DNA of 44,935 bases from a virus. The notes under the pieces are model-generated. The model ran no database searches, was not told the DNA's origin, and saw only the letters and a program-made list of their open reading frames with translations. A program made the translations under genes and the position numbers. The DNA is taken from UHGV virus genome UHGV-0175244; one strand, written 5' to 3'. The first letter of the stretch is position 1, and the number at the start of each line of letters is the position of its first letter. Shown piece after piece: positions 26,720 to 37,707 of the stretch.

Positions 26720-26794
26720 TGGAGCATCTGGCGGGGATCGAACCCGCATATTCTGGTTGGAAGCCAGACGTAATTACCAAACTACGACAGATGC
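26720..26794 (-). tRNA. phage-encoded tRNA-Gly (anticodon UCC)
   Basis: 75-nt cloverleaf folded by hand: perfect 7-bp acceptor and 5-bp T stems, T-loop TTCGATC, anticodon loop CUUCCAA, discriminator U, CCA encoded. Confidence 0.8.
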
Positions 26795-28785: not shown

Positions 28786-29240
28786 CAGGCCTCCTGCTTA
28801 TCGCGCAGCACCTGAAATTCGCTGCTTTGAGGTATGGTTAGCACCAGGCCAAACTGAGCGCACCAACCTTCCACCTGGCACATGAAATGATGCATGTCGC
28901 CAGTGTCCAGATCGGACGTGTGGCGCAGTTCTAATTCAATCGTCTTAATTCCGGTCACGAAGTCGGTGTATTCAACCTCTTCATAACCGAGATGGGTCTT
29001 TTTGAGGTTGCGCTTTACCCATGCAGGCGTGGCGTCAGTGCGCCCAGACTTGATCAGGTAATCGCTGATTTCCTCGTACCAGACATGGCTCAGACTATTT
29101 TGAGAAAGGCTTCTCTTCTCGCGCCAGTCTTTGAGTTGCAGCCGGAAGCACTCACCGTTTTCGAGAAGTGGCTTCAGATGCTGAGTGATAGCACCAAGAT
29201 TTCCACGGTGTAGCTTGATGCCGTCTTTGGGGAGAATCAT
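28785..29240 (-). CDS. ninB: NinB recombination protein
   Basis: 151 aa; strong AGGAGG RBS; NinB/YbcN family character. Confidence 0.8.
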   Translation of the reverse strand: MILPKDGIKLHRGNLGAITQHLKPLLENGECFRLQLKDWREKRSLSQNSLSHVWYEEISDYLIKSGRTDATPAWVKRNLKKTHLGYEEVEYTDFVTGIKTIELELRHTSDLDTGDMHHFMCQVEGWCAQFGLVLTIPQSSEFQVLRDKQEA

Positions 29241-29423
29241 ACGGCCTCCTTAACGGAAACCGCAGAATGCAGAAAATCGCAGGTGCATTTCTGCATCTGT
29301 GACAAGGTGAGGAGTTCAGATTGTGTTCGCATTTAAGTCCCCTTAAATGCGCAGAAGTCACCGGAGTTGTTCAGGCTCCGATGACATGATTATGGACGGT
29401 TGATTCAACAAAATCAACGCGAG

Positions 29424-34885: not shown

Positions 34886-35452
34886 TCACATAACTCCCGG
34901 CGCCATAGCGGCCAGACTTGTCACCACCGCAGCGATTGATTCAGTTGGCAGGAGGCGCAGCAGTGCTTCAGCAGCTTCTCTCACCTCTTTCTCAAGGCGT
35001 TGTATCGGCTGACCAAGTAACTTCGCCTGATGCGCTTCAGTGCACTCTTTCATGGCCTCGGCTATCAGTTCGGCCTCAGTCTTTGCGACAAGACCGAACT
35101 CTCTCGCCACTTTCTCGTTATCCCGAGCCATCACATCAACAATGACGGGGATAAGTAGCACCAGGCCTTTATCGTTCTTAGGTCCCGGGTCGTTAATCAT
35201 CCGGAAGAAGTTCTGCTTGGTGTTGTGCTCAGAACCGGCCAGCAGCAATCCACGACCGCCGCGCGCCAGCCACTCCTTTGCTACCAGTTGCGAAATGTGA
35301 ACCTGAGCCTGTCCGGGCGTTGCCTTCTGCCAGGCGCGAACAGCTTCGCGGATCCTGGTCAGCTTACTGTTATTGCGCGGAACGCTTTGATTTATCGAAA
35401 TCATCGGATTCGCAGTGAATCCGTTATTCTCGTGATACGTAAGTGAATGCAT
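34886..35452 (-). CDS. cII/YdaT-like regulatory protein (putative)
   Basis: 188 aa immediately downstream of cro-like gene; assignment by position. Confidence 0.35.
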   Translation of the reverse strand: MHSLTYHENNGFTANPMISINQSVPRNNSKLTRIREAVRAWQKATPGQAQVHISQLVAKEWLARGGRGLLLAGSEHNTKQNFFRMINDPGPKNDKGLVLLIPVIVDVMARDNEKVAREFGLVAKTEAELIAEAMKECTEAHQAKLLGQPIQRLEKEVREAAEALLRLLPTESIAAVVTSLAAMAPGVM

Positions 35453-35469
35453 TGCTTTCCCTTTCGTGG

Positions 35470-35703
35470 TTAGGCCGCAGTATCACGCGGCGATGCGAAT
35501 ACCAGGCTTTCTTTGAGGACCGGAGCCTGGCGGTGAAAATTCTTCGTGCCTTTTTCGATAGCAGATGCCATTTCTGGAGATGCCCGGCGATTTCCGTAGG
35601 CAATCTGGTCCAGGTAACCTGGCGTCGTGTTAGCCAACTTTGCGAGCTGTGCCCATTCGTCGGTAGTGGCGGCCTTGCGCCAGCGGTGTAGTTCAGTGCT
35701 CAT
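35470..35703 (-). CDS. cro: Cro/YdaS-like HTH regulator
   Basis: 77 aa; HTH segment WAQLAKLANTTPGYLDQIAYG; divergent from cI; GGAG RBS. Confidence 0.65.
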   Translation of the reverse strand: MSTELHRWRKAATTDEWAQLAKLANTTPGYLDQIAYGNRRASPEMASAIEKGTKNFHRQAPVLKESLVFASPRDTAA

Positions 35704-35735
35704 TGTTGTCTCCGGGTGAGTCGTTTAATTTGGAG

Positions 35736-35801
35736 TTTAGCGTTATGCTAAATACTACGCAAGCATCATTTAGCAATTTGCACATTTATCATTCTGCTAA
35801 A
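35736..35801. promoter_or_regulatory. OR operator region (PR/PRM) between cro and cI
   Basis: 17-bp palindrome tttagcgttatgctaaa (35736-35752) plus two related sites; possible PRM -10 TAACAAT at 35807-35813 giving leaderless cI. Confidence 0.5.
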
Positions 35802-35819
35802 AGCAGTAACAATGCAGGG

Positions 35820-36497
35820 ATGGAAAATAAAGAAATCAGAAAAGCCAACCTGGAAGCGCTGTACGAGAAACGTCAGCACGAATCTGGAATGACCAAGGCG
35901 CAGTTCGCCGAGCTCATCGAGACAAGTCCGGCTGCGCTTAGCCAGCTACTGGGACCAAACCCTCATCGCAATATCGGCGATAAGATGGCTCGCAAAATTG
36001 AAACTGCGCTTGATCTGCCTTTTGGCTGGATGGATGTTTTACACGCCAGTGAAGAACCTTCGAACGTTGCATTTCGAGGACTTAACGAGATAAAAGGAAG
36101 TTATCCTGTGATCAGCTGGGTAAGCGCGGGGCAATGGATGGAAGCTGTAGAACCTTATCACCGAAGAGCGATAGATCGCTGGTATGACACGACCGTTGAT
36201 TGTTCAGAAGATTCATTCTGGCTTGACGTTAAAGGGGATTCTATGACCTCCCCGGCCGGACTGAGCATACCAGAGGGAGCAGCGATACTTGTTGATCCTG
36301 AAGTCGAGCCGCGCAACGGAAAGCTGGTTGTCGCGAAGCTAGAAGGCGATAACGAAGCGACCTTTAAGAAGCTTGTAATCGATGCCGGCAGACGCTTCCT
36401 TAAGCCACTTAACCCCGCGTATCCAATGCTAGAAGTTAATGGAAACTGCAAAATTATTGGCGTTGTGGTCGATGCAAAAATACTAAACATCCCATAA
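35820..36497 (+). CDS. cI: CI-type repressor (HTH plus LexA-like S24 peptidase domain)
   Basis: 225 aa from ATG at 35820; HTH MTKAQFAELIETSPAALSQLL; C-terminal autocleavage-domain character; listed ORF start 35703 is a TTG artefact. Confidence 0.85.
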   Translation: MENKEIRKANLEALYEKRQHESGMTKAQFAELIETSPAALSQLLGPNPHRNIGDKMARKIETALDLPFGWMDVLHASEEPSNVAFRGLNEIKGSYPVISWVSAGQWMEAVEPYHRRAIDRWYDTTVDCSEDSFWLDVKGDSMTSPAGLSIPEGAAILVDPEVEPRNGKLVVAKLEGDNEATFKKLVIDAGRRFLKPLNPAYPMLEVNGNCKIIGVVVDAKILNIP

Positions 36498-36516
36498 CCA
36501 CACGCAAAACCCCTCA

Positions 36517-36541
36517 AGCCCGCCATTGCGCGGGCTTTTTT
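36517..36541 (+). terminator. rho-independent terminator after cI
   Basis: agcccgc-cattg-gcgggct followed by T6-7. Confidence 0.6.
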
Positions 36542-36580
36542 GCGTCCCGAATTCCTGCGCTGTAAATTTTTAATCGCTTA

Positions 36581-36655
36581 TTAATCAAAAAGCTAAATAA
36601 AATCCGCCAATAATTTAGCATTTTGCTATTGCGCATAATTTAGCATCACGCTAAA
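36581..36655. promoter_or_regulatory. OL operator region / candidate pL
   Basis: perfect 17-bp site tttagcatcacgctaaa (36639-36655) plus two degenerate copies; same half-sites as OR. Confidence 0.45.
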
Positions 36656-37150
36656 TTTACCCCATCGAAACGAAACATCGACAGCTGAGCGAAGTTAGCC
36701 AGCGGCGGATAGCGAGTCGCCTGCTCATTAAGAATTCAGTCAAGCAGCAAATCACCCGGAGCGCTCCTGGCAAATTGAAATGGCGCCCAATGGGATTGAG
36801 GCAGGTGTGTAACGCGTGGCGGGTATAGCACACGAAGAGGACTCCGCACCGGAATGGTTTGCTGCTCAGTTCCCGAACATCGGGGAATCTTCAGTGGGAA
36901 TGTTTTGGGATTGGATGAATGCGCAGGCTGATGCGCGGGGTGGAGCGGCCCGGGTGGCTACTGAATCAAGACAGGCTGTAAGACAAGCTGTGTAAATAAC
37001 TGGTAAGCCGTAGTAGCCAATAAAGCAGGTGAAAATCATAACGTCTATCCCGCTTCGGCGGTGGCAGCTAACACCTGTGATAGTCAATGCCGGAGATCAG
37101 CGCCGGCCATCCAATCACCAAAGCATTTCGATTCATCAACCCACGCAACA

Positions 37151-37241
37151 AAGGAGCTTCTATGCGACGGCAAAGCTATATCGCTCACAAATAATCGGTA
37201 CCACAAATGCTTTCGGAAACCCCGGCGATGTCGGGGTTTTT
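37151..37241 (+). other. strong RBS plus 10-codon mini-ORF followed by rho-independent terminator (attenuator-like)
   Basis: AAGGAG-5nt-ATG CGA CGG CAA AGC TAT ATC GCT CAC AAA TAA (37162-37194); then accccg-gcgatgt-cggggt plus T-run (37219-37241). Confidence 0.4.
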
Positions 37242-37389
37242 GGTGAGTGCTTTGGGTTGGCAGACGGTTATCAGCTAGTTGGTGAGGTAATGGCTCACCA
37301 AGGCGACGACGACCTTCCCCGCTTCATTGTGGGGAGCCAGCGCCAAAGCATTTCTCCCGCATCAGCGGGTAACGACAGAGGGTAAGGCG

Positions 37390-37557
37390 ATGAGAAACAC
37401 AACAGATAAATATGCTGCCGAGTGCAGTGAAGATTACAGGCAGTATCGCAAAAAATGTCGAGCATCAGTGCGTGGTGATGGGTTTCATGACCTTTGGGTA
37501 AAGCTGGCATGGATGTGCCGACGCAACGCACGAGAATGGATTAACAGAGCCGCCTAA
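37390..37557 (+). CDS. small hypothetical protein (55 aa, Cys/Arg-rich)
   Basis: internal ATG (M22 of listed ORF) with GGGTAAGG RBS; stop codon sits in loop of a strong terminator. Confidence 0.4.
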   Translation: MRNTTDKYAAECSEDYRQYRKKCRASVRGDGFHDLWVKLAWMCRRNAREWINRAA

Positions 37558-37571
37558 CCAGCGGCTTTTTT
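37549..37571 (+). terminator. rho-independent terminator
   Basis: gccgc-ctaacca-gcggc followed by T6. Confidence 0.6.
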
Positions 37572-37707
37572 CATACCTCAGTCGCTTCACCGAGGCGGCT
37601 TAGTTATGACAATCGGCGGCCATCCACCGCCCATTGAAACACTGAATAAATGCGTTGAAGTCTTGTATTAACCGTTCGGCGGCGCGGCCTTAAGCGCGGA
37701 GATGATT

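Follow-up and report, generated by a model that had tools for sequence, protein, structure and literature searches.

The stretch analysed here, referred to below as the window, comprises 44,935 nucleotides (nt) of the virus genome UHGV-0175244, and all positions are given in its coordinates. It carries a cI-type repressor gene and a divergent cro-like gene, with one cluster of 17-bp dyads in the interval between them and a second cluster beyond the end of cI. A first reading, made from the sequence alone, had pointed to a perfect palindrome, TTTAGC-N5-GCTAAA, on each side of cI, each accompanied by two degenerate copies, and had likened them to the right (OR) and left (OL) operators of phage lambda. 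The comparative analysis described below leads us to regard these sites as very probably the CI operators of a lambdoid prophage immunity region, with three sites at OR, between cI and cro, and three at OL, past the cI terminator. The gene and the sites are listed first, with the position of each site relative to the predicted early promoters PR and PL and to the predicted promoter for repressor maintenance, PRM.

35820-36497, + strand: cI repressor gene, 225 amino acids (aa) beginning MENKEIRK, with a helix-turn-helix (HTH) N-terminal domain, an Ala103-Gly104 cleavage site (VSAGQW) and an S24 domain with the GDSM serine and the FKK lysine
35736-35752: OR1, perfect palindrome TTTAGCGTTATGCTAAA; centre at about -17 of PR, filling the PR spacer and overlapping its -10; near-invariant in 12 protein-selected relatives
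35769-35785: OR2, TTTAGCAATTTGCACAT, 3 mismatches to the motif; left half strong, right half weak; centre at -43 of the proposed PRM start
35785-35801: OR3, TTTATCATTCTGCTAAA, 1 mismatch; left half weak, right half strong; covers PRM from -35 to -19
36581-36597: OL3, TTAATCAAAAAGCTAAA, 2 mismatches; left half weak, right half strong; centre at -75 of PL
36614-36630: OL2, TTTAGCATTTTGCTATT, 2 mismatches; centre at -42 of PL, its final two T's being the first two bases of the PL -35
36639-36655: OL1, perfect palindrome TTTAGCATCACGCTAAA; centre at -17 of PL

The two palindromes are exact matches to TTTAGC-N5-GCTAAA with the coordinates and sequences first reported, and a mismatch-tolerant search placed the four degenerate copies exactly where they had been described. 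Two exact copies in 44,935 bases compare with an expectation of 0.01, and none of 100 dinucleotide-preserving shuffles reached two. Allowing up to two mismatches, the whole window contains six sites, five of which lie within the two cI flanks; the sixth, at 28837 inside a coding region, agrees with the chance level of about 1.4-1.5 per window. The motif is thus clustered at cI and is found elsewhere only at chance level, which answers the concern that it might occur at similar density across the genome. The flanks, 319 bp with an A+T content of 59%, would be expected to hold 0.018 such sites under their own composition, against the five seen.

The half-site extends to 7 bp, giving the consensus TTTAGCA-N3-TGCTAAA. 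OR2, OR3, OL2 and OL3 each combine one consensus half with a weak one, whose weak form is itself conserved. OR2 and OR3 abut, sharing base 35785, with their centres 16 bp apart; the centres of OR1 and OR2 are separated by 33 bp, and OR2 makes no contact with the PR -35. An OL2-like site 25 bp from OR1 was looked for and is absent, and the two cI flanks contain no further repeated dyad besides the motif. A literature search on TTTAGC/GCTAAA operators returned, as its top matches, papers on the RK2 KorA/KorB operators, which use the same half-site at different spacing; this resemblance is regarded as coincidence.

Prophages in 126 of 5426 complete Escherichia coli genomes match the 1.4-kb region at 96-97% identity, and the sole deposited phage covering most of this region is Klebsiella phage KO-TP1, at 90% identity. 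A protein-guided scan of one genome per species provided 45 loci of graded CI identity, and the OR footprint was established with 12 protein-selected relatives (Enterobacter, Citrobacter, Atlantibacter, Phytobacter, Biostraticola, Pantoea and Klebsiella phages). The OR sites stand at identical offsets from the cI ATG, with no insertions or deletions, in loci L003-L008 (Enterobacter, Citrobacter, Atlantibacter and Phytobacter), L022 (Biostraticola), L023 (Pantoea) and Klebsiella phage Chronis, while the surrounding bases vary. The left half of OR2 is invariant in these relatives (it reads TTTATC in the T-type relatives described below), and the position of OR3 is conserved in all of them.

An exact-match scan with OR1 recovered more than 120 viral contigs from IMG/VR. 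The OL layout is the same in all 58 viral contigs with enough DNA: O3, a variable 16-nt spacer, O2 ending in GCTATT, 8 nt and a perfect O1. Among 54 distinct OL sequences, the length of the OL3-OL2 spacer is fixed, and the half-sites carry 1.95 bits per position against 0.81 bits for the inter-operator spacers. The search for the motif in related prophages that the sequence-only reading had suggested therefore has a clear outcome, all six sites keeping their exact positions while the spacers drift. The phylogenetic footprint, together with the location of the strongest sites inside conserved putative PR and PL elements, supports the lambda-like OR/OL arrangement; the spacing differs from that of lambda, and phage H-19B is a closer relative. 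As a separate observation, in 12 of the 58 viral contigs the cI stop and OL are separated by 0.8-2.3 kb of cargo, the position of the lambda rex genes; the other loci noted for cargo at this point are L022 (3160-4755) and L048 (2505-3100).

Covariation of the probable operators with the repressor

The distribution of the motif among relatives follows the N-terminal, DNA-binding domain of the repressor. Loci L009-L021 encode a C-terminal domain 81-90% identical to that of the window CI with a different N-terminal domain, and they have no TTTAGC dyads. The motif is kept in L022 and L023, where the C-terminal domain is only about 55% identical and the N-terminal domain about 58%. In two Pantoea loci, L042 and L043, the C-terminal domain is a different one and the N-terminal domain is 50% identical; there, each of the six positions is occupied by TTTATC-N5-GATAAA, with the register unchanged. 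We refer to sites with TTTAGC/GCTAAA as G-type, to those with TTTATC/GATAAA as T-type, and to repressors by their N-terminus (MENK-type). A scan for non-G variants on the OL scaffold added four more MENK/MESK-type loci, or five with L177, whose cI lies outside the contig DNA, and all of them are T-type; the four are viral contigs in which the N-terminal domain is likewise about 50% identical.

The motif thus follows the DNA-binding domain, and at every site dyad positions 5 and 13 change together, which is how an immunity determinant would be expected to behave. The proposal that it defines the immunity specificity of the prophage gains support from this covariation, in which all six sites change in the diverged relatives. 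Positions 5 and 13 (G/C here, T/A in relatives) would then be part of what sets the immunity group. The G/T change could not be assigned to a single recognition-helix residue, the G-type helices SPAALSQLL, SASQFSQLL and SPAQLSQML differing from the T-type NPAQLSQVL and SAQLLSQRI at several positions. The same OL2-8 nt-OL1 scaffold was also seen in L171, L173, L175, L176, L178, L179, L182 and L183, in the form TTTATCA-N3-TGATATTGACA...TTTATCAC-N3-GATAAATT; the available contig DNA shows no MENK-type cI upstream, and this group may represent another repressor family on a similar scaffold.

Predicted promoters and the start of cI

Three promoters are predicted in the region, with the following elements.

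35757-35762, - strand: PR -35, TTGCGT; the TTG is invariant at 17-bp spacing in relatives
35734-35739, - strand: PR -10, TAAACT, of which TAAA is supplied by OR1; predicted start at about 35726-35729
36629-36634, + strand: PL -35, TTGCGC; TTGnnn in relatives, including TTGACG and TTGCCA
36652-36657, + strand: PL -10, TAAATT; TAAATT or TAAAGT is invariant in relatives and H-19B; predicted start at A36664
35808-35813, + strand: PRM -10, AACAAT, followed by 6 nt and the A of the cI ATG (35820), the predicted +1

PR and PL share one predicted design, a -35 TTGnnn, a 17-bp spacer and a -10 TAAAnT, in which the operator occupies the spacer and half of the -10. The context reads TTGCGT-AGTA-TTTAGCATAACGCTAAA-CT on the - strand at PR and TTGCGC-ATAA-TTTAGCATCACGCTAAA-TT on the + strand at PL. 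The TTG and the final T, which lie outside or at the edge of the dyads, are invariant in the alignment of all relatives, the T-type loci and H-19B; the PR -10 is conserved as TAAAnT and reads TAAAGT in H-19B and the T-type loci. An alternative PL -10, CATAAT (36634-36639), was rejected as its position 2 is not conserved in relatives, and an alternative PRM -35, TTGCAC (35778-35783), as it would require a 24-nt spacer.

From a TAACAAT ending 6 nt before the cI ATG, the sequence-only reading had proposed a leaderless cI transcript. The element is indeed present at 35807-35813, followed by GCAGGG and by the ATG at 35820. PRM was compared in 28 distinct upstream sequences drawn from 83 loci, with the A of the cI ATG taken as +1. 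A(-11) and T(-7) are found in all 28, A(-9) and A(-8) in 26 and G(-14) in 25, and the sequence from -6 to -1 varies but its length never does. No Shine-Dalgarno sequence stands at usable distance before the ATG at 35820. In-frame stops occur just upstream of the cI ATG in 18 of the 83 relatives, with TAG or TGA directly before it in L022 and L023. Because the predicted PRM start coincides with the A of the ATG, the cI mRNA would be leaderless. Transcription starting on the AUG is supported by the invariant -10 bases and spacing, the missing Shine-Dalgarno and the upstream stops. The cI mRNA of lambda is leaderless, and the paaR2 transcript of CP-933P was found to be leaderless by 5' RACE (PMC8630535).

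Public annotations place the start further upstream, RefSeq giving 250 aa from an ATG inside OR1 (L001 4326-5078) and phage Chronis 264 aa (L049 1684-2478). Translation from the corresponding in-frame ATG at 35745 would yield a 250-aa protein from a leadered mRNA, and PRM would not be leaderless. We consider this very unlikely. The annotation pipeline PGAP does give the E. coli homologue 753 nt, and a GGAG (35732-35735) lies 9 nt before that ATG in the window, but the GGAG is not conserved (CTGA, ATCA and GCGA in L022, L023 and L043) and the 25 extra codons are those interrupted by the in-frame stops in 18 of the 83 relatives, including the two directly before the ATG. Moreover, MENK or MESK at the downstream ATG is common to all relatives, the alignment with lambda CI starts at residue 10 of the short form, and the extension overlaps the operators, whose conservation would explain why its frame is open. 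The comparative data therefore favour a 225-aa CI starting MENKEIRK, and the RefSeq start at 35745 is not credible.

Neighbouring genes and related switches

Around cI and the operators, the immunity region comprises the following features.

35470-35703, - strand: cro-like gene, 77 aa, first gene of the PR operon, with a GGAG Shine-Dalgarno 6 nt before its ATG
34886-35452, - strand: YdaT-type CII-equivalent gene, second gene of the PR operon, 17 nt after cro
about 36516-36543, + strand: intrinsic terminator after cI, with an 8-bp stem of which 6 are G-C pairs, then a T run; conserved in the E. coli and KO-TP1 homologues

The cI product matches Pfam Peptidase_S24 (2e-29) and HTH_3 (8.8e-5), and its residues 10-218 align with residues 17-227 of the lambda repressor (PDB 3bdn, E = 1.1e-31), VSAGQW facing VQAGMF and both GDSM and FKK being matched. 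Judged by this alignment, the gene between the site clusters is a true full-length homologue of lambda CI. Residue E31 aligns with D38 of the lambda activating patch, which is a hint only. The cro-like product is 61% identical to H-19B Cro over 77 aa, and matches PHROG 35 (transcriptional repressor, 7.5e-8) and, weakly, HTH_3. The product of the next gene matches PHROG 163, 'CII-like transcriptional activator' (2.2e-37), and Pfam YdaT_toxin with 17.2 bits, below the cutoff; RefSeq names its homologues 'toxin YdaT family protein'.

The divergent cro and cI genes are separated by a 116-bp gap. The - strand carries in order the cro-like gene, the ydaT-like gene, replication protein O and a DnaB-type helicase; on the + strand, the OL cluster lies downstream of the cI terminator, with small genes including kil further along; in L001, the E. 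coli homologue, these are succeeded by gam, bet and exo. The gene order is that of lambda, with the predicted PR directed leftward and PL rightward in window coordinates.

Several other observations concern the surroundings of these genes. A dyad resembling the YdaT operator, TTGATTTATCGAAATCAT, lies at 35387-35404 with 1 mismatch to TTGATT-N6-AATCAA, some 65 nt into the ydaT-like gene from its 5' end and near the cro junction, a position like that of the promoter for repressor establishment, PRE. A perfect one, TTGATTCAACAAAATCAA, is found at 29400-29417 between open reading frames (ORFs) of a nin-like region, and these are the sole matches with at most one mismatch in the window. Over 36656-37700, roughly the first 1 kb after PL, neither a convincing gene nor a recognisable N gene or boxB is present, and the 17 nt between cro and the ydaT-like gene leave no room for nutR. 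The closest homologues and KO-TP1 (L001-L004) show almost no variation in the first ~70 nt of the PL leader, and the fold of 36664-36830 is no more stable than those of shuffled sequences (z = +2.0). A search with Rfam at gathering thresholds found two tRNAs in the window and nothing in the immunity region. The tRNA genes are at 43606-43679 and 26723-26794 (- strand), the latter inside the prophage. A 387-aa ORF (42424-43587) just before the right-end tRNA may be an integrase by its position, which makes this tRNA a possible attachment site.

According to these comparisons, the closest characterised system is that of the Shiga-toxin phage H-19B. A tblastn search with the CI N-terminal domain retrieved the cI of H-19B and of many Shiga-toxin phage relatives (50.7% identity over 75 aa), the N-terminus being MENK(D/E)IRK..., and Cro is 61% identical as given above. 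The OR of H-19B follows the same register without gaps (OR1, PR -35, OR2 abutting OR3, a -10 that reads GAAAAT in H-19B, 6 nt, ATG), and its OL, O3-16 nt-O2 (…GCTATT)-TTGCCA-O1-TAAAGT, aligns without gaps from OL3 to the PL -10. The operator sequences are different. H-19B has TTTACCATTTTGATAAA, TTTATCATATTGCGTAT, TTTATCCATTTGCTAAA and TTTATCATTCCGATAAA, with half-sites TTTA(T/C)C / G(A/C)TAAA instead of TTTAGC/GCTAAA, so heteroimmunity with H-19B would be expected. The C-terminal domain of H-19B CI belongs to another S24 subfamily and is of lambda type here; the nutL with a P22-like boxB and the N gene that follow PL in H-19B are not recognisable here, nor is the HigB-like cargo gene that H-19B carries between cI and OL. 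That H-19B ORF, directly after cI, we take from its sequence, by eye, to be a HigB/RelE-type toxin. H-19B also has a fourth OR repeat, TTTATCACACAGAACAA, 18 bp before OR1, and the equivalent stretch of the window (35718-35734) has no match and is not conserved. Its OR is described as having four operator sites (PMC8065619), and Shi & Friedman 2001, a study cited in PMC8065619, examined its operator-promoter regions by experiment.

The window shares with lambda a CI homologous over its full length, including the Ala-Gly cleavage site and the Ser/Lys residues, the divergent cI/cro arrangement and, at OR as at OL, three 17-bp dyads. The strongest site likewise stands at -17 of the predicted PR and PL, OL2 at -42 of PL and OR2 at -43 of PRM, where the centre of lambda OR2 is at -42. 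The succession of -10, 6 nt and ATG is the geometry of the leaderless PRM transcript of lambda. The operator sequence, however, is unrelated (lambda TATCACCGCCAGAGGTA), the OR centres are spaced by 33 and 16 bp instead of 24 and 23, and the PR -35 lies clear of OR2. The distance from OR to OL is about 0.9 kb, with no rex genes, against 2.4 kb in lambda; Cro and the YdaT-type CII equivalent are not homologous to the lambda proteins, and no N/nut system was recognised here.

Some features also recall the PaaR2(RacR)-YdaS-YdaT module of CP-933P and Rac, whose CP-933P switch was described by Jurenas et al. 2021 (PMC8630535). A YdaT-type CII equivalent directly follows the Cro position in both (PMC8630535, PMC9986795), both intergenic regions are short, with 97 bp there against 116 bp here, and hold several dyads with a TTTAG core, GTTTAGTAA in CP-933P (PMC8630535). 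The YdaT operator of CP-933P is TTGATT-N6-AATCAA (Prolic-Kalinsek et al. 2023, PMC9986795), and the dyad TTGATTTATCGAAATCAT stands near the cro/ydaT junction, like the OM site there (PMC9986795). In contrast, PaaR2 and RacR lack the S24 self-cleavage domain that is complete in the window CI, the CP-933P operators are four equally spaced 18-bp inverted repeats with a dyad spacing off by 1 bp, and its repressor operon contains a toxin-antitoxin pair.

The proposed switch and competing readings

A lambda-like switch can be proposed from these elements. CI dimers would recognise the 17-bp dyad TTTAGCA-N3-TGCTAAA. PR would drive cro, the ydaT-like cII equivalent, O and dnaB, and PL would drive kil and the recombination genes. 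CI at OR1 and OL1 would block both promoters, so that lytic transcription would be off from the occupancy of these two sites, which lie over PR and PL. The weak halves conserved in OR2, OR3, OL2 and OL3 would imply a graded affinity and a filling helped by cooperativity. CI would fill OR2 cooperatively and activate the weak PRM (-35 TTTATC, -10 AACAAT) as in lambda, and occupancy of OR3, which covers PRM from -35 to -19, would shut that promoter at high CI or when Cro binds. Cro would act in the reverse direction, and RecA-stimulated cleavage at Ala103-Gly104, expected by homology, would induce the prophage. The motif statistics, the homologies, the conserved positions and the covariation are shown here; CI binding and the order in which the sites fill, like PRM activation, the transcript starts and heteroimmunity, are what we infer for this region.

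A number of points weigh against this interpretation. Every functional statement rests on sequence and homology. OR2 (35769, 3 mismatches) is not significant by itself, with 0.18 such sites expected; its support is conservation and covariation in relatives. An automated sigma-70 scan of 35400-37400 found no promoter; PR and PL match the consensus at only 7/12 positions, which is why the scan missed them, and PRM also at 7/12. The promoters were therefore called from the conserved TTG-17-TAAAnT and nAnAAT elements, and these calls depend on conservation and position. The RefSeq and phage annotations of a 250- or 264-aa CI would imply a leadered mRNA. As cI and cro are inherited together, covariation cannot separate CI from Cro as the reader of the motif. 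Finally, two dimers might not fill OR2 and OR3 together, given the shared base and the 16-bp distance between centres, a packing not seen in lambda.

Among the competing readings, the idea that the palindromes have no repressor-specific role, having arisen by chance from A+T-rich intergenic DNA or generic promoter elements, can practically be set aside. The composition of the flanks and the presence of TAAA in the -10 elements would lend themselves to it, but the five sites seen where 0.018 are expected, the exact positions across genera and the joint switch of all sites to TTTATC/GATAAA when the repressor N-terminal domain diverges all speak against it. It also seems very improbable that the Cro-like (YdaS-type) protein is the main or sole reader of the palindromes while CI binds another sequence. 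Cro and cI always travel together, so their covariation with the sites does not tell them apart, and in CP-933P the footprints of YdaS and PaaR2 overlap on repeats with the related half-site GTTTAGTAA (PMC8630535). An operator set at PL, past cI, and perfect sites over both early promoters nevertheless correspond to the need of a maintenance repressor; both proteins use the same sites in lambda-type switches, and the flanks offer CI no other repeated dyad.

A more serious alternative, though still a doubtful one, is that OR contains only two true dimer sites, OR1 and OR3, and that one higher-order CI assembly binds 35769-35801 as a composite element of 33 bp (TTTAGC-N21-GCTAAA). In its favour, OR2 and OR3 have a base in common, the consensus is matched by their outer halves only, and the 33-bp distance recurs as the centre spacing of OR1-OR2 and OL3-OL2. 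The inner weak halves, GCAyAT and TTTATC, are however conserved in sequence and not merely in length, and the four OR sites counted in H-19B, which has the same layout (PMC8065619), fit only if the equivalents of OR2 and OR3 are separate. A broader speculation, which we would hold just as lightly, is that the MENK family forms a natural series in which all six operators have at once exchanged one half-site base pair (position 5, which is G here and T or C in the types of H-19B and Pantoea), along with the CI/Cro recognition region, creating new immunity groups on a frozen scaffold. On that scaffold the abutting OR2/OR3 may act as one composite element, where a single CI assembly would activate and subsequently shut PRM, unlike the separate OR2/OR3 of lambda with its OL-OR looping.

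On the comparative evidence, the immunity region of the window probably represents a new specificity inside the H-19B branch of lambdoid CI/Cro switches, combined with a lambda-type C-terminal domain, as ordinary lambdoid mosaicism would produce. No experimental characterisation of an immunity type with these operators was found in the literature. The understanding of how lambdoid switches work is unchanged, and the mildly unusual aspects are the abutting OR2/OR3, a specificity that differs between groups by one base switched in concert, and a cI that public annotations systematically over-extend. The analysis yields an operator consensus, TTTAGCA-N3-TGCTAAA, and predicted promoter positions for an immunity type common in E. 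coli, Enterobacter, Klebsiella, Citrobacter and related genera, and it would correct a cI start that public annotation places inside OR1. With their identical scaffolds, the G-type and T-type classes offer a clean pair for studying the co-evolution of repressors and operators and the origin of immunity groups.

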